Shown here one piece after another: positions 38,534 to 54,292 of a DNA stretch of 64,000 bases. Below the pieces are notes generated by a model that was given only the letters and a program-made list of their open reading frames with translations, did not search any database and was not told the origin of the DNA. The stretch comes from Octopus vulgaris (Eukaryota), in contig OX597822.1 of the NCBI GenBank assembly GCA_951406725.2, positions 81,034,001 through 81,098,000 of the forward strand, read 5' to 3'. A program made the position numbers and the translations under genes. Every line of letters starts with the position of its first letter. Position 1 is the first letter of the stretch.

Positions 38534-39324
38534 CAAATCCATGAGCTATACACACAACTTATAACACAAGCGCAAATTACATTATTCATACGCAAATTGC
38601 AAGACACGCACAAACTACCAGAAAGTTACACGCATAACAAATACAACAGACACACACGCACACAGTTAAGCGCGCGCACACACATATTCAAACAGACGAA
38701 CGGCCATTAGCTCACAAGTCTGCTTGTTATGAATTTAACTATACAAATGTAATTACTTTTTACAGATTTATTAATCAGTTTTGAGTGGATTTTTCTATTT
38801 TGGAACATATATTTTTAAAAAAGCAGCTTTCAATAAATGCTTTCATTCTATTGGAAGAAATTATATGGAATTTGTAAATAATAAATAACTTTTTTTTAAG
38901 CGCTGCATGCGTGCATTTGTGAATGAGAGGCGAATAAATGATTTATATGTAAATTCTATATTTGCATATCTGTGCTGCCCTTACTCGGTGATCCGTCTTT
39001 GGACGCTTTCATAAACATAAACGTTTGTAGTTCGTTTTGAAATTTAGAATTCGAAGTTATTAATAATTCTTTCTACTATTCTCCCATTCTGTTATTCTAT
39101 TCTTATTTTACTGGTTTCGTGTAATTTTGACTGTGGCCATGCTGGAGCACCGCCTTTTAGTCGAAGAAATCGACCTCTGGGACTTATTCCTTGTAAGCCT
39201 GGTACTTATTCTATCGGTCTCTTTTTCCGAACCGCTCAGTTACGGGGATGTAAATACACCAACATCGGTTTTCAAGTAGTGGTGGAAGGAAAAACACAGA
39301 CACAAGCACACAAATATATATATA

Positions 39325-39515
39325 TAGTTGAAATTTGCAGAAAAACAAAAGACGAAGACAGGTTTATGAACAACAAGCAGGTGTATTAGTTTGACGCCCG
39401 GGAAAGTGAGAAAGTTCTTTACGTTTCGAGCCTACGCTCTTCAACAGAAAGGAATATGAGAAAATAAACAGAGAGAATAAAAAGAACTTGTGGATCTAGC
39501 GATCAATCAATCATG
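39325..39515 (-). mobile_element. Short Penelope-type hammerhead repeat nested in a family B SINE
   Basis: Minus strand reads cctttctgttgaagagcgtaggctcgaaacgtaaag. It sits at the internal microsatellite of the SINE at 39110-39680. Confidence 0.7.
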
Positions 39516-39684
39516 GCGACGACAGGCTTCTTTTAGTTTCTGTCTACCAAATCCACTCACAAGGATTTTGTCCTCCCGAGGCAATATAGTAGAAGATAGT
39601 TGCCCAAGGTATCACGCAGTGGGACTGAACCCGGAACCATATGGTCGAGAAGCAAGCTTCTTTATTTCATTACATTTGCCATAA

Positions 39685-42002
39685 AGGCAGTACATAGAGT
39701 AAAGTAGCTTTGCGGGCTGGACGAGGACATTAATGAAATGAATGATAATGAAAGAAAGATGATAAGGATGGGAGAAGACAAAAAGCGCCCGCCGACTTCT
39801 GCTTCTCTAAAACATTGTTCTTTAAAACCAAACACAAAACAAGGTATTAAACCTCTTACAACTTTTACAACTTTTCAATTTTTGGACTTAACAGTCCATT
39901 ACAAACAACAACATAGTTCAATAATTACATATAATATAAATACAATACACAAAGCCCCTCCTCCCAGACCTGGCTTACACTTCCCTTAGGAATGCGCCAG
40001 CTCTAGGTCGGGGCCCCTCAAGTCGTATCTAAACATGTCCTATCAAACATAAAAAATACATTATCACTTCTCCCTTCCTCCTCTTTCCGGACCTCCAGTC
40101 AAATATCTAGCCGCCTGCAGAGCAGACCACTTTGACAGCCGGGGAGTTCAGAAAGAAAGCAAAGTGCCTATTATCAAAAGTTTGTGTCACACAGTGCCAC
40201 CATTTATGACTCATCCTCAAAATAACTTGTGCCCGCATCCTCTGCCATCCTCCACGCCTCTTCCAAAACCGCATCGAGTTCCGTGTTAGCGTTGCCCGGG
40301 TACAAGCGATATTCCTCATTGAGCTCCTCCAGCTCAAACGTCACGTCGAACGTCGTGGCCTCCACAGCTATCTGCGCAGGCCATTCGGGGTCCTGTGTGA
40401 AGGCTGAAGGTGCTCCCTTATGGTGCCTTTCCATCACCTTTTCAATCTCTCCGCCTCTATGGAAGAAGATCAATACATCGTCTTTTCACGGGGGCGGGAT
40501 ATTCAATTCTTTCATTGGCGGCACAGTTCCCGCCAACGGTGTTTCTTCTGTCGGTGGCACAACCCCAACCGACGTAGTTCCGGGACATTCCGGTACTATG
40601 TCACCGACTGCCGGCAATGTCCCGTTTCTCTTCCTCTTCCTCTTTTTTTTTCTTTTCAAATGAGGGAGGGTGCGTCTCCTCCGTGGCCGGAAGATTCGCA
40701 TTTCCCTCCTCATCCCTAGGATCCTTTGGTGAGCACCCATTGTTGCTCACCTTCTTCCTCTTTCGGCCCCTGTTTGAGGAGTCCTCCGCTTCCTCGGCCG
40801 TCTTCATTCCCTCTTCTACAGGGGTTTCACTTAACTGCTCCGGGATCTTATTTTGTTCCCGGGTACAGTTTTTCTTTATATGGCCAGACACCAGGCACCG
40901 ATGACACCTGGGGGCGACCCTCAAGTATCACCGGGTACCTGCACCCGGCCATTTTCAAAAAATCTGGAAAAACCAGATTGGCTGACTGGGTCCAAAGGGT
41001 CAAAATTGCTTTTGACCCAACCCAAACAGCCGCAGGAAGAACTTTCACATTAAGAAGCTTGGTCCCGCTGCCACCCAGACCCCGGAGGATAGTCTCCTCT
41101 ATCCACTCGGGTTTTATCCCGGGTGGCAGCCCGCAGATCCAAGCTTTCGTCAACCTCTTCCCATGATACGTGGGAAGAAATAAAATTTCCTTACCCTCCA
41201 GGGGTTGACTAGCAAATTTGCGAGCCTCTTCAGGGATGTCAAATAGCAACCACACCGTTGCATATCTGACACCCCTGGAAATGAATTTAATTGTTGGCAA
41301 ATACTCTGCCAACTCCTTTTCAATTGCCGTCTTTTCGAATAGGGCGATGGTGTCGAGTGCCTTGGAGTAGGTTCTCAACACCACCGTCCTATCTTCACGG
41401 TCTTTTAACCACTTTTTAGGTAGTATAATCTCCCATTCCAAAATTTTGTCATTTTTCATTGCCATGTTTCTTTTTTCTTTTTGAAATATATTCAAAATAA
41501 AACTTAAAAAGCGAGAAGAAAAAAGAAATCAAAAGAAAGTCACAATAAACAAAAAGGAGAAAGTCAAATAAAGTTTAGAAGAAAGTCAATAGTTCAGGAA
41601 CATAGCAAAAAAATCTACCGGACATTCGGTACTCCCGGCCTAGGTTGAACCCGGAACGCCACAACTGGAACACAATTTTCACAAAAATTGATATACAAAT
41701 TGTTCAATCTTCGGAGGCAAAACACTCCCCCATACAGCAGTTCTCACAATTATTAAAGTTCTTCAAAAGGCACAATACAAGCAATAATTCTCATAATTAA
41801 GTGAGAAAAATATTCACTCAACGTAAACCGAAGACGAGGATACGCCCCACCAAAAATGAATCCAATAAATTCTCAATACACAAAAACAGCAGCCGCCGAG
41901 AGCAGGCGAAATTGTCCCAGAGCTGGACACAATTTACTGAAAAAATAATTCACACGCAATAAATTGTTGCTCGGCTCGCTACCGATCCTTCTAGCGCGCC
42001 GC
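39685..42002 (-). mobile_element. ORF1-only Tx1/L1-related non-autonomous retroelement (boundaries approximate)
   Basis: About 500-bp 5' UTR, one gag-like ORF1, about 500-bp 3' region, and no APE or RT motifs. Confidence 0.65.
40204..41495 (-). pseudogene. Tx1/L1-type ORF1 (gag-like, CCHC zinc knuckle), about 430 codons when reconstructed
   Basis: ORF 40848-41495 shifts in a C-run into 'PRCHRCLVSGHIKKNC' (CX2CX4HX4C). It shifts again in an A-run into 40486-40740 and continues through one TGA into 40204-40473 (same frame). It aligns by eye to the LINE ORF1: 'FLPTYHGKRLTK' vs 'MIPSYHGQRVTK', and 'VILEGRP' vs 'LVVEGRRPRC'. Confidence 0.8.
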
Positions 42003-47828: not shown

Positions 47829-47914
<86 letters not shown>

Positions 47915-48221
47915 CTTTCTTTTATTAGCCACACAGGGCTGAATACAGAGGGGACAAATACAAATGTAGAGCTTTTCTTTCCGAGGGTGGAAAATAAAAA
48001 GGAAAATAAATGTATGATTTCGATCAAAAGGGATCGAGAGGAAAAATAAAAACAAATAAAGAAACGTGTATCACAGAAGCACTTTTTTTAAAGAAACATT
48101 TATAAAACAAGATTAGGTTCATCCGTGGGAAGAAAAGCCTACAGAAAAGACCACGGGAACCTCAGTCAGGGAGGAAATAACCACATGAGAGCAAAATACT
48201 CTCTCTCTCTCTTTTTATGAT

Positions 48222-51200
48222 TTACAGGATAATGCTCAAAATGGTTTCATCACTCGCACGCACCATCTTTGCAACATTCACCCATCCTTTTTTGAATCTT
48301 TCGCGAGACAAAACTTCCCTCTCCATTCTCACCTTCCTTTTCAAGTGGTACTTGAAAAAGTTGATGAGCGATTGGCCAGAGAGGTAAGTGTTTGTCTCTA
48401 ATCCTTTCGCTCGGGTCCACCACACACATTCTTTCACCATGGCCACCAGTACGATGAAAACTGTCTTTCCTTCCCGGTCGAGGGAAGGGGCGGAGCAGTA
48501 CTCACGATAGACTCGGCCGATAGGCGGACTCGTCCCACACGTGACAGCAGCAGTTCGGCATAAGCCCACAGGTCTGAAATGGTTGGACATTGCACGAGTG
48601 CGTGCAGAACGATTTCGTCGCTCTGACCGCATCTCGGCTAAGTCGGTCCAGTGTGTCTGGAACCGTGTCTGTAGAGCTTATCCCGAACAGGTAATGCTTC
48701 TCGATAGCACTGCCAGGCCAGGGATCTTTGGTGATTGTTCATAGGTCCCGGCCCGAAAGTTGTCCTGAACAGGCGGGTCAGGTGTTCCTCGTCGACGCCC
48801 AGACTCTGCCCGAGATCGTCGTCGCACCTCCCCACCACTAATCCTCTATATAATGCCTTTGTCGTGATGGAGACGCACAAGTTTGATCCCGGACGGCAGA
48901 GTTGCTTCAGAGCAACGCGACACTCGCGGTGCCATTCGCCTAGACTCGGTCTCTGCTTGATCCATGACTGTAGTTCGGCCAAGGAGACGAGCTGCGGGAA
49001 AGCGCGCCGCACAAAAGGCGACCACACCTGTTTACCGTCGTCTATGAAGCGCCGGAGATGTCACAGTCTCAGCGCATGTCTACGCATCATCAACCACGGC
49101 ATGCCCAGCCCTCCATTTAGCGGTTGTTGACAGCAAATGGATCGCCTAGCCATCGGAACGTTTCCCTTCCATAGGAAGCGGAAAAGTATACGTTCCAGTT
49201 TGGCGATGGTAGGGTCGGGACAAGGCACGACGGTCAGACGATACTCTATGATGGATGCGATGTATGCGTTCGCCACCTCCGCCAGACCTTTTAGGGATAG
49301 CTTTCTCACAGCCCATTTCTGGGTGAGAGTAGCCACTCTAGTCGTTATTTCGCCCCAGTTCTTCTCCATTTGGAGGTCCGGACCGAACCAGACCCCGAAC
49401 AATTTAACCGGTCCGTCGGTCCAGCGTCCCACGATGAAGACGCTGTTGGACGGCATGGGCCTGCTTCTCCAGGTGCCGAGCCGCAAGCCCACTGATTTTT
49501 CCCGGTTAATTTTTGCTCCCGTTACCGCTTCGTATTCTTTTAGTGTCTCGCCGACCAGCTCGATGTGCTGGTAGCTCGACACTATGACGGTGACGTCATC
49601 TGCGTATGCAGACACGCTCCTCCCGCATCCCAGCTCTCGTGGGATGCCCCTCAGCGTCGCCAGTTTCCGCAGTAGTGGCTCAAGAGTCAATACATACAGA
49701 AGCGATGAGAGGCGGCATCTCTGACGAACCGAACGCATGATGTTAAAAGGTCTGGATAGATGACCATTTTCGCGAACTACTGAGCGGATGCCGCTGTATA
49801 AGGCAGCGATCCAACCGCGGAAAACTGGACCGAAACCAGCCGCTTTAAGAAACCAGCCTCCAAGTAGTGATGGTCTACCCTATCGAAAGCTTTTGATTGA
49901 TCCAAATTGATCAGCGCCCCACCCATGCCAGGATTCTTGACTACCCTGTCTATGATGTAGCGCATCAGATGGAAGTTGTCATGAATACTTCTACCCGGCA
50001 CGGCGCATGTTAGCGCCTTGTCGACTTGCTTCTTGATGACAAGCGCCAACCTCTCGGCTAACACCTTGGCCAAAATTTTCAAATCTGCGTTGAGCAGAGT
50101 GATTGGCCTGAAATTATCTATGACGTCCCCCTTGTTTGGGTCTTTCTTAATGAGTGCCACTGCTCCTCGCTTTTCAAAAGCAGGGATACTCCCGTTGTGC
50201 TGCCAGTTGCAGTAGACAGCTGCCAAGACGCCTCCAAACAAGTCTGGCATATGACAATAAAGTTCGTAGGGCAGACCATCCAAGCCTGGTGACTTGTCTC
50301 TCGCGTAGCCTGCCATCGCATCCTGTACGTCCGCAGCTGTGATAGGCCTTTCACAAGACTCCGCCTCTCTTGCTGAGAGTCGTGGCAAGGCATGCAGGTA
50401 GGCACTAAAGTCTACTCTGCGTTCTGACCCACCACTTGTCTCAAACAGTTGGGTGAAGTGTTGTTGAAAAGCCTCACACATCTTTTTAGGCTCAATCAAT
50501 TCGCGCCCCTGTTCATCTGTAAGAGACTTGATGGTGACCCTGTTGCCTCGTTGCGTCTCCACCACTCGGGCTTCTTGGGCGGCTCCAACTCCTTCGTTCC
50601 TCAGAGCACGCATCCTAGCTCTGACAACGCATCCTTCGTGTTTGGCGTTGAGGTGTTGGTCGAGAGCCAACCTCGCTGCCAGTACGTTGGACGCGATGCC
50701 AGTTCTAAGTGCCTCTTCTAAAACCTTAACTAAATCTCCCTCTATTCTATTTCGTTCTAATGCTAGGGCTTTACTGTACCTGACTGATTCTGCTTTAATT
50801 GCTTTTTTTAGGGCATACCACCATCTGTTGTTGATGATGGTACCCGTCAAAGCTCTCATAACTAATGTGTTGACCGGTCCCTGTAAACCTGTCGTGCTGT
50901 AAAAGACGCATTCAGCTTCCAGTAACCAGGACCCTGCCTATGTGTCTTATCTAAGTCAAGTGTACAAGTCACAAACTTGTGGTCTGTGTAACTGACTATA
51001 TGAAATCGTGGACAACCTACACTATTTTTATCTATTGTCCTACAGAATACTCTATCTAAGTACGATCTGGACGACCGGATGCGGTTACTCCATGTCCACA
51101 TTGGCACATTCGGGTGGTCCAGTTGGTACCTATCAGACAGTTGGAAACGTCTGAGCAGGTCTTTGAGGCATTTGCATCCCCTCCTATTGCTATCTCTGCC

Positions 51201-51659
51201 CACATAGTCTAGATGCGTGTCCAGGGTGGCATTCCAATCCCCCACTAAAAGTAAAGGACGAGACGTTCCCATGAAAGACTCTAGACGTGGAAAGAAATCT
51301 GGTCGGCTTGTTAAAGACGGAGCATAAACTGTTATCAGTCGAAAAGCACACTCATTGCTGCCATCGACATCCAAAACGACCAACCTACCCTCTGGGTCTA
51401 GGAAAATTGCTCTTACTTTGAGGTCCAGACTCTTCCGGAGAAGCACCGCGGTGCCACCTCCGCCCATTCTCGGTAGACACGCAGAAAAATAAATGTTGAA
51501 ATGTGTGCCGAACATGTGCTGGAGTGTCCGCGATCTGTGGAGTCTGGTCTCACTGATGGCTATGATATGCAGATTTAGTGACTTGATGTCGTTTAACAGG
51601 TAGCCTTGTTTCCAAGGCGACCCCAAACCACGTACATTTTTACTGCCTATTTTGAGCAT
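48222..51659 (-). pseudogene. LINE ORF2: APE endonuclease + reverse transcriptase (fragmented)
   Basis: APE: 'IGSKNVRGL', 'ISETRL', 'VYAP', 'VGDWNA', 'YLDRVF', 'TDHK', 'YWKLN'. RT: 'KSPGLDGLPYE', 'FRPITLLNADLKILAK', 'LDQSKAFDRVDH', 'LEPLL', 'AYADDV', 'GGLGMP'. Split over five ORFs. Confidence 0.95.
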
Positions 51660-51729
51660 GTTCCTATCAAAAATTGTGTTTTACACACGAAAAGAAGGTG
51701 AGAAAAAAAGGAAAGAGAGAGAGAAAAGG

Positions 51730-53892
51730 TTACTTATTGTCCGAAAGTCCTTTGTTTTTCACCTCATAGTCTTCTCCCATGAGGTTTTTATAATGTTTCT
51801 TTGATAAATATTTTTGAAATCTCCCAACTGCATCAGGGTAGAGGTATTTCAGGGTGCTGTGTGTTCTGTGTTATGTGTATTATTTTAATGTGTTGTGGTG
51901 GTGTTGTGCGTGGGTGGTTATTTGTTTTTGTGTCGTTTTCAGTTATATTGGTGTTTGACCTAATGTATTCCATTAGGTCGTGGTTGTTTGTGTTTATGGC
52001 TGTCAACATTGTTGGGGGGTTTGGTGATAGTGTATTTGTGTTGATGTGTTTGTTTTCTGTGAATGTTTTTGTTTCGAGAGTGGTGAATCTTCCTGCTTTG
52101 TTTGTTAGATTTTCTATTCTTTTTCCCCTTTTTTCTCCTCACCCCTGTGGCTATTTGTCAATCCTCTGTGTCTTCTTCATCTAATGACATGCCAAAGGAA
52201 TCAGAAAGTGGGAGGGGTCTATTTTTGACTGTGTTGACTTTGTTGTTGGTGTTGGTTGGTGAGCGTTAGGGTGTGGTGTATGGATTTTTGGAGGTGGTGT
52301 GTGGGTATTTTGTGTTTGTGTGATTGTAGGTATTGTTGTGGTGTTTGGGGGGGTGTTTTGTGGGGATTTGGAGTAGTAATTGTTTCTTCATTTCAATGCT
52401 TGTCTTTTTGGTAGATGTTCTTGGTTTGGGAGTTGGTTTCTCTTTGGCTGTTGTTGATGTTTCTGTTCTTGGTACAGTTGGTGGTGTTGTTTGGTTGGAT
52501 AGGTTTGTTTCTTGTTGATTTTCTGTTATTGGTCCTTTTATTGTTCGTGCAAACTGTGGTGTGGGTAATGAAGCTGGCTTTTTTGTTTTTTCCGGCTGCT
52601 GTTGTTGTTGCTGCTGTTTTCTTGCGGCAGATTTGCAATCTCTTTTTAGATGTTGCTCACTGCCGCATATGTAGCAGCGTGGTCTTCTGCCCTCGACGAC
52701 CAGATACAACTTGTGGTCTTCTGATATATAGATCTGGGTGGGTATTTTCTTGATGGCATCTTGGTTGATGTGTAGCAGAATTTCTACTCTTTTTCCCACC
52801 CAGTTTTTGTGTTCAGTGACCGTGGTTTATAATATTTTAAAATCGTCCATTTCCACACATATGGCCGATGTTAGCCACAGAGTGTCCGCTTTTTGCGGAA
52901 CATTGTTTAAGATGACCTTAGTCACTCTCTGTCCATGGTAGCTAGGTATCATTGTGAGTTCATCCGAATGAAGAGTTAGCGTTGAGAATCGTTTTGCTAA
53001 CTCTTCAGTGTGGAAAACTACTTGTATGTGCGCAAACTTGTTCCACCAGGTCACATATTCTTTGAAGTTCCAGATAGGTTGCAAGCATTTTTCGATTTTG
53101 CTTGTGTTAGCCTTCTCTGGACATTTTGTCTTCTTGTTGATTATTTTATATATAATGGGTTTTTTTTTCATTTTCTAGTATTTGGTGTGGTATGTTTATT
53201 TTTAGCTTGCCATCTTCCTTAGTTATTAAAGCCTTGGTATCTTTTATATGTTGTGCAGTAAAAGATACTGTTGTCTTCTTTTCTTTTATCGCCTCGGCGA
53301 AATTTGTTGTTGTTTTGTTATTGTTGTTGCTGGTGATGATGTTGTTGTTGGCTGCAGTTGGTAAATTCGGTGTATTTGGTGTCTGATGTTTGATTGTACA
53401 AGTAGGAAGGGGTAGAAAATTACTTGCATAATTTGTCCCTGCGTTTGAGCAGCTGTCGGCAATTTGTTTGGTGGTCACGGTCTTTTGTTTATCTCTTTCA
53501 GTTCTTGGTGTTGGAGGAAGCAAGGTCTGAAAGGAATTGTTGTTGTTGTTATTGTTGTTATTGTTGTTGGTGTTGGCGGTGGTGTCAGTGGCAGAAGAGA
53601 CAGCCGTGGCAGCAGCTATCGAAATGGTGGCGCAATGGTTGTTATTCTTGTTGTCATTGTTGTTGGTAGTTATGGCAGTGGATGAGATGGTGGTGGTGGT
53701 GGTTTTGACAGGACTATTTATAGTACAAAATTCTCTGTTGTTGACAGCGATGTCTTTTTCAAATTTTTTGTACTTGATTTTTTTTTCGTTTTTCAAAAAT
53801 TCGTTCTTTTTTCCTTCTGTCATTCCAAGACATGGAAAATCTTCGTCAGACAAACTTGACAAAATTTGATCAACGACCAAATTTCTCGACAT
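51730..53892 (-). pseudogene. LINE ORF1 (gag-like, CCHC knuckle; fragmented)
   Basis: ORFs 53146-53892, 52827-53171 and 52266-52799, with 'RCYICGSEQHLKRDC' and T/N/Q-rich low-complexity flanks. It lies directly upstream of ORF2. Confidence 0.85.
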
Positions 53893-54292
53893 TTTTATTA
53901 TCGAGAAATAAATAAAAAATATAAGGTGATGAAAAAGCCCCTAGGGGCGAATTACACACTTCGAAATAGCCAAACGAAGATTTGGCTCTTCAAAATTTAA
54001 AAAAACTCCGAAATAAATTTTGTAAACAAAAAGACGACAATACGTTTATACGTTAGACGCAAAGAAACGCTATGCCGACATATGCAAATATTTGGAGAAA
54101 ACAAAATATTTGATATTAAAACAGGGATGAAAATGCTCCTAGGGGCAAAAATCCCCTAGGTAAAAACACACCCAGACGAGAGCTGGGTGTCTTGCACACC
54201 TTGTATGCGAAAATTTGAAACAGGTCTTATAAATAACACAATAATAAATTCGATAAACTTACGAGCCGACGAATCAGAACACACTATCAATG

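Follow-up and report, generated by a model that had tools for sequence, protein, structure and literature searches.

The window analysed here, a 64,000-nucleotide stretch of the Octopus vulgaris genome, carries on its minus strand a copy of a non-autonomous retroelement that encodes ORF1 and no ORF2, hereafter called family A (Table 1). A gag-like ORF of about 430 codons had been predicted at this locus; the ORF is present on the minus strand, but its length is about 420 codons. The alignment with the intact copy L142 (94.5% identity) reveals exactly three breaks, namely a frameshift in a C-run at about 40909, a frameshift in an A-run at about 40651 and a TGA at 40488-40486, in agreement with the two homopolymer shifts and single TGA of the original prediction. 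As described there, ORF1 has a CCHC knuckle and an acidic C-terminal region, no APE or RT follows it, and the very divergent homology to ORF1 of the neighbouring LINE was recovered as well (26% over 120 aa, E 3e-10). The 3' end, on the other hand, had been misplaced at 39706-39730, where the wrong stretch was aligned to the LINE end. The true end lies at 39660 (…ATGAAATAAAG), and the SINE head whose right half forms the 3' flank had been overlooked.

The window copy is atypical in its 5' part. Where full-length copies have a further ~140 bp at the 5' end, preceded by the left SINE half, the window copy has 37 foreign bases, which resemble another SINE head only weakly (E 0.13); no left SINE half was detected in the window at three or fewer mismatches. 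Because the left target half has been replaced by the foreign stretch, the window copy shows no target-site duplication.

Table 1. Features of the family-A copy and of its surroundings in the window (positions refer to the window).
Feature	Position	Strand	Evidence or remark
Non-autonomous ORF1-only retroelement (family A), copy incomplete at its 5' end	39660..41965	-	17 near-full-length matches elsewhere at 89-96%; 3' end common to siblings
5' UTR	41466..41965	-	~140 bp shorter than siblings L002-L010, which reach the SINE junction
Foreign 37 bp in place of the element 5' end and left target half	41966..42002	-	Missing from siblings
ORF1 (~420 codons), ATG 41465 to TAA 40204	40204..41465	-	Alignment to intact L142 and L141; intact relatives 395-427 aa
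Two predicted RRM domains	40911..41430	-	Model of intact relative L148
CCHC zinc knuckle, downstream of the first frameshift	40862..40905	-	zf-CCHC in intact relatives
Acidic C-terminal region, fold unassigned, position conserved among family-A subfamilies	40207..40485	-	Alignment
3' UTR	39660..40203	-	Sequence; without ORF2 similarity
4-bp tail hairpin	39677..39689	-	Pairing and covariation across 30 tails (families A, B, partner)
Right copy of the ~12-bp target duplication	39648..39659	-	Same 12-mer behind the tail in siblings
Right part of the target SINE head	39519..39647	-	B-box-like stretch 39619-39638 judged by eye
Tail part of the target SINE	39100..39326	-	Recurs in flanks of other loci
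Neighbouring LINE (APE-RT type, decayed) within a (TATC)n/(CT)n microsatellite	47912..54290	-	Pfam APE, RT, zf-CCHC; flanks

Family A is a multi-copy family whose members share a 3' end and target-site duplications and do not run into an APE-RT ORF2, as the original prediction required. In a DNA search of the same genome (best 40 of 3,252 candidates), 17 other copies cover at least 2,100 of the 2,318 bases in one piece with 89-96% identity, and all of them extend beyond 39706-39730 to a fixed tail matching the window to 39660. The tail is in view in 28 of the 29 siblings, 27 of which have the same 12-mer behind it; in 26 of 29, the 5' end is preceded by the left SINE half. Therefore, the element splits the SINE head at one base, with a duplication of ~12 bp. 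The tail carries no poly(A) and the target site is single; both target halves were seen at 36 of 50 further family-A loci. The SINE site occurs in 23,152 exact empty and 228 exact filled copies (~1% filled), and the reversed control patterns gave none. No tRNA match was found in Rfam for the SINE head and nothing relevant for the element, the A- and B-box-like stretches being judged by eye. At one locus (L014), a different SINE with a LINE-like tail is inserted beside the same target site, just 3' of the element.

A protein search scored 136 places, 26 of which have a frame of 400 aa or more with no stop inside the match. Among 20 fetched relatives, which had been picked for long frames, 19 contain an intact ORF1 of 395-427 aa, all 20 have the tail and target ends, and 12 are 97.5-99.9% identical in the ORF, indicating that family A spread recently. 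With natural ORF2 frames as query, no ORF2 was found behind the family-A ORF1 in 30 sibling loci, 30 tail-anchored loci and 50 further loci, and the sole two ORF2 matches in these loci fell outside the elements. A search for longer (fused) forms of ORF1 also found none, which is weak evidence. When 30 of the 228 filled places were examined upstream of tail and target, 11 contained a family-A ORF1, three an ORF1 of a second family (family B, see below), five an ORF2 end and 11 non-coding sequence, mostly truncated ends.

The same SINE site is also occupied by an autonomous APE-RT element, hereafter the partner. Two ORF2 loci represent elements of 5,460 and 5,446 bp lying between both SINE halves, with a knuckle in ORF1 and APE, RT and zf-RVT domains in ORF2. 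ORF2 frames of 1,133-1,150 aa occur in 14 of the 150 places listed, and all 30 top copies as well as all 20 further, mostly older ones have the target behind their tail. The partner is a young element specific for the SINE site (L121:2035-7495; L289; L290), with intact ORF2 copies of 1,140-1,150 aa. The partner shows the Tx1 traits of a knuckle in ORF1, an APE-RT-zinc finger ORF2 and a preference for a target sequence; we call it Tx1-like, a label that follows its architecture and the original prediction. As far as can be judged from the tail, target and 5' ends that the two have in common, on which the assignment is based, this 5.45-kb element is the likely mobiliser of family A. Meanwhile, the neighbouring LINE is full-length with both ORFs broken, lies inside a (TATC)n/(CT)n microsatellite, and is 47-61% identical to the partner in ORF2; therefore, it is a relative and not a likely mobiliser. 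The earlier proposal of trans-mobilisation by a Tx1 ORF2 thus holds in so far as a co-targeting APE-RT element with the same tail exists, but the neighbouring LINE is not that partner. The loci L221-L240 represent eight or more additional related LINE families, whose ORF2 is intact and whose flanks differ; one of them is arranged in tandem at 5.4-kb spacing on C2, and L230 ends in (ATT)n.

The tails of family A, family B and the partner have a 4-bp hairpin in common. Across 30 tails, 93% of the cells are paired and two-sided changes are seen in three of the four pairs. The covariation is 0.30 versus 0.11 in shuffled tails, with none of 500 shuffles as high and slid controls far lower; the hairpin comprises only 4 bp, and kinship of the tails can inflate this measure. 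Folding of the whole tail gives unremarkable z-scores (-0.1 to -1.3). The hairpin is likely to be the signal that the partner ORF2p reads.

The ORF1 protein was modelled on an intact relative, L148. An earlier structure prediction from 11 close sequences gave a pLDDT of 30; that from a 75-row alignment is usable for the core only, with a pLDDT of 85-98 over residues 11-200 and poor values beyond. The L148 model resembles tandem-RRM proteins in Foldseek (best E 7e-5) and the La RRM (Z 10.2, rmsd 2.6 over 82 aa). The zf-CCHC match in intact relatives (E 0.001-0.02) is under the Pfam cut-off, and the knuckle profile matches nucleocapsid knuckles in the PDB. Family-A ORF1p is predicted from the model to be an RNA-binding protein with two RRMs and a CCHC knuckle, and RRM-RRM-CCHC is described as the type I layout of ORF1 (PMC4120745). 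No match to PF02994 (Transposase_22, L1-type ORF1) was found in the family-A ORF1. The acidic C-terminal region, with a pLDDT of ~50 in the L148 model, has no Pfam match, and its similarity to the C-termini of autonomous ORF1s is not significant (hhalign 14.3, best of 40 shuffles 11.5; shallow alignments). The closest database protein to ORF1, and the sole match among 1,256 candidates, is labelled Octopus sinensis and shows 63% identity. The ORF1 core is 24-30% identical to that of the partner and 21-33% identical to those of six other autonomous families. In ORF1 trees, family A forms a well-supported long branch, and the trees neither join nor separate family A and the partner (AU p 0.50). 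In view of this low identity and the AU result, no parent LINE is named for family A, and the trees do not show the independent evolution that the original prediction had assumed.

The original prediction had pointed to dN/dS among the ORF1 subfamilies as informative. In the core, dN/dS is 0.16-0.22 in ten subfamily pairs with dS of 0.5-1.4, with bootstrap upper bounds of 0.27-0.31 in four pairs. The C-terminal region gave 0.27-0.64 in the same pairs, with bootstrap intervals that reach 1. A value of 0.58 was obtained for the close pair L167/L168. Singleton changes in 12 young copies, meant as a neutral control, gave 0.37 where ~1 was expected; dN/dS is biased down because the copies were picked for open frames. 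Within a sample biased in this way, the family-A ORF1 is under purifying selection and its coding capacity is maintained.

A second ORF1-only family of ~1.47 kb, family B, has the same tail and target and was first seen stacked ahead of a family-A copy (L023:1-1350). It comprises several subfamilies (L241-L270) with 61-94% aa identity; the left target half was found at 20 of 30 loci and the right half at 20 of 30, and no ORF2 occurs within 1.5 kb in the 30 loci. Five family-B pairs gave a core dN/dS of 0.18-0.35. The family-B ORF1 shares 37-44% identity with most autonomous ORF1s and 20-29% with that of family A; a common origin of families A and B is not rejected (AU p 0.56). Head-to-tail stacks are mixed in composition, with the partner followed by A at L217, B followed by A at L023, and A followed by A at L021. 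Elsewhere (G000), ORF1-like matches recur at ~1.7-kb spacing at C3:20079379-20088245, C5:100951728-100957211 and C14:53076788-53078880, and these are possibly further ORF1-only families in tandem arrays.

The 5' ends of these elements are heterogeneous, family A having many unrelated types of 5' UTR. The first 17-39 bases are common to half elements and partner subfamilies in three cases (L015/L121, L173/L272 and L176/L273), and many 5' ends open with motifs that we take to resemble NRF1 or ETS sites. Of 29 ends, which are not independent of each other, 22 contain a splice-donor-like motif (e.g. L148:415-420) at a distance of 75-142 nt from the 5' terminus, versus a shuffle mean of 0.6, and this motif recurs across unrelated UTR types. 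The motif might be a U1-binding site. Signs of a 5' UTR intron were looked for and not seen: one 5' type had no spliced copy in the genome, four runs (contigs, only guessed to be RNA) contained no joint, and no acceptor is conserved. One variant of the left 12-bp duplication is common to L149, L150 and L183, whose right copies differ from it, and the two halves of the duplication are identical in only seven of 12 young copies. The left copy appears to be partly element-borne, which would fit RNAs starting inside a target-derived tag. Left-duplication variants are likewise common to L182 and L189 and to L015, L156 and L176.

The unit in the window is thus very probably a disrupted member, incomplete at its 5' end, of a long-lived family of ORF1-only elements with a one-base target in a SINE head, likely copied in trans by the ORF2p of a co-targeting APE-RT (Tx1-like) element. 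We infer that the partner is the element that mobilises family A. In this process, the family-A ORF1p would coat its own RNA, the partner ORF2p would bind the tail hairpin of that RNA, and the partner endonuclease would nick the SINE just behind the A-box-like stretch, where target-primed reverse transcription would start. The tail of the element ends in bases similar to those of the SINE to the left of the cut. Since the tail end mimics this sequence, the site would be rebuilt by each insertion, so that later copies stack head to tail.

Alternatively, such copies might have been produced again and again by internal deletion from an autonomous LINE with this ORF1 that escaped the searches, the selection signal then being inherited. 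Short internally deleted copies do occur (L036, 1.47 kb), and because the genome searches scored the best 40-150 candidates, a rare parent or one with a closer ORF1 could be missed. However, subfamilies at dS ~1 all share the same ending without ORF2, and the ten fetched partner copies that retain ORF1 (L121, L122 and eight of the 20 further copies) carry an ORF1 that differs from that of family A, with 24-35% identity; one more copy, L284, shows a weak ORF1-like match only. We therefore consider a deletion origin highly improbable. A mobiliser other than the partner, that is, the neighbouring microsatellite-sited LINE family or any LINE of the group, is if anything even harder to credit. All LINEs of the group have a loosely similar tail, and the neighbouring and other LINE families also bear a similar hairpin; but it is the endonuclease that determines where insertion takes place, as PMC4494074 describes, and the neighbour sits in (TATC)n. 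Moreover, the SINE target was found behind the tail in none of the 30 top zf-RVT LINE loci, the site being common to the partner family only.

A further alternative addresses the reason for ORF1 retention and not the identity of the element. ORF1 could have been retained to serve the host or to restrain the partner LINE, as a dominant-negative or decoy, and not to package its own RNA. Autonomous ORF1s have an N-terminal extension that is missing here, the C-terminal region is peculiar to the family-A protein, and at the filled sites ORF1-only copies exceed ORF2 ends by 14 to 5, all of which would suit this idea. However, selection along lineages of dispersed, still-spreading copies (young ones 97.5-99.9% identical) fits a benefit to the element, and a host or decoy role seems unlikely to us. 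A three-tier parasitism can be proposed tentatively, as a picture that is possible though rather doubtful in its entirety: the SINE would host a site-specific LINE, and the LINE would host at least two protein-coding half elements whose own, strongly divergent ORF1s capture the partner ORF2p, with RNAs that start in a tag inherited from a previous landing site and 5' promoter modules that parasite and partner exchange in stacks.

On the preferred reading, ORF1-only elements would be extended to a target-specific, Tx1-like group. The locus also leads to a matched natural set, consisting of half elements that are young and intact, partner copies whose ORF2 is intact, a putative tail signal of 4 covarying bp, and a defined target of which >23,000 copies are empty. 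This set makes it testable why a non-autonomous element retains its own ORF1p though SINEs manage without one. Since the family-A ORF1 is three-quarters different from that of the partner, cis-packaging and partner interaction should be separable.

Target-specific Tx1 elements described previously include Xenopus Tx1 in Tx1D, Keno in U2, Kibi and Koshi in microsatellites, and Tx1-Mar in Mariner-N4 (PMC4494074). Like the partner, these are APE-RT LINEs at a fixed site in another repeat, and they sometimes bring SINEs (SINEU-3) there (PMC4494074). In contrast, the targets named in the available part of that paper include no SINE head, and the passengers it mentions are non-coding SINEs, not ORF1-coding half elements (PMC4494074). 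In octopus, L1-Tx1 families have been counted, and the main text of that report, as far as available, makes no mention of non-autonomous or target-specific ones (PMC13282606). Our literature searches brought up neither an ORF1-only Tx1 family nor the present pair of elements with its SINE target; Repbase, Dfam and supplements may contain them.

Family A can be regarded as a new variant of the class of ORF1-present non-autonomous LINEs (HAL1/HeT-A/Ag-Sponge). It encodes ORF1p only, forms a dispersed family with defined ends, has a maintained ORF1, and has a 3' end common to an autonomous LINE. L1-like elements have a poly(A) end and dispersed insertion. The strict traits of HAL1 are not seen in family A, whose ORF1 is not of the L1 type (coiled coil-RRM-CTD), whose end is not poly(A) and whose insertion site is fixed. 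HAL1 is similarly non-autonomous, encodes ORF1p only and has long kept its coding capacity, and for it the use of ORF1p in cis and ORF2p in trans has been proposed (PMC5753468, PMC3627910). However, HAL1 derives from L1, whereas family A combines an RRM-RRM-CCHC ORF1 and poly(A)-free, site-specific insertion in a SINE with a hairpin common to its partner. The ORF1-present non-autonomous LINEs named in the available part of PMC5786205 come from Jockey (HeT-A), L1 (HAL1) and CR1 (Ag-Sponge), not from Tx1. HeT-A and Ag-Sponge are close to family A in being ORF1-only and dependent on an autonomous relative (PMC5786205), as family A would be. HeT-A differs in its target, which is the chromosome end and not, as for family A, an interspersed SINE. 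HeT-A builds head-to-tail arrays with its partner.
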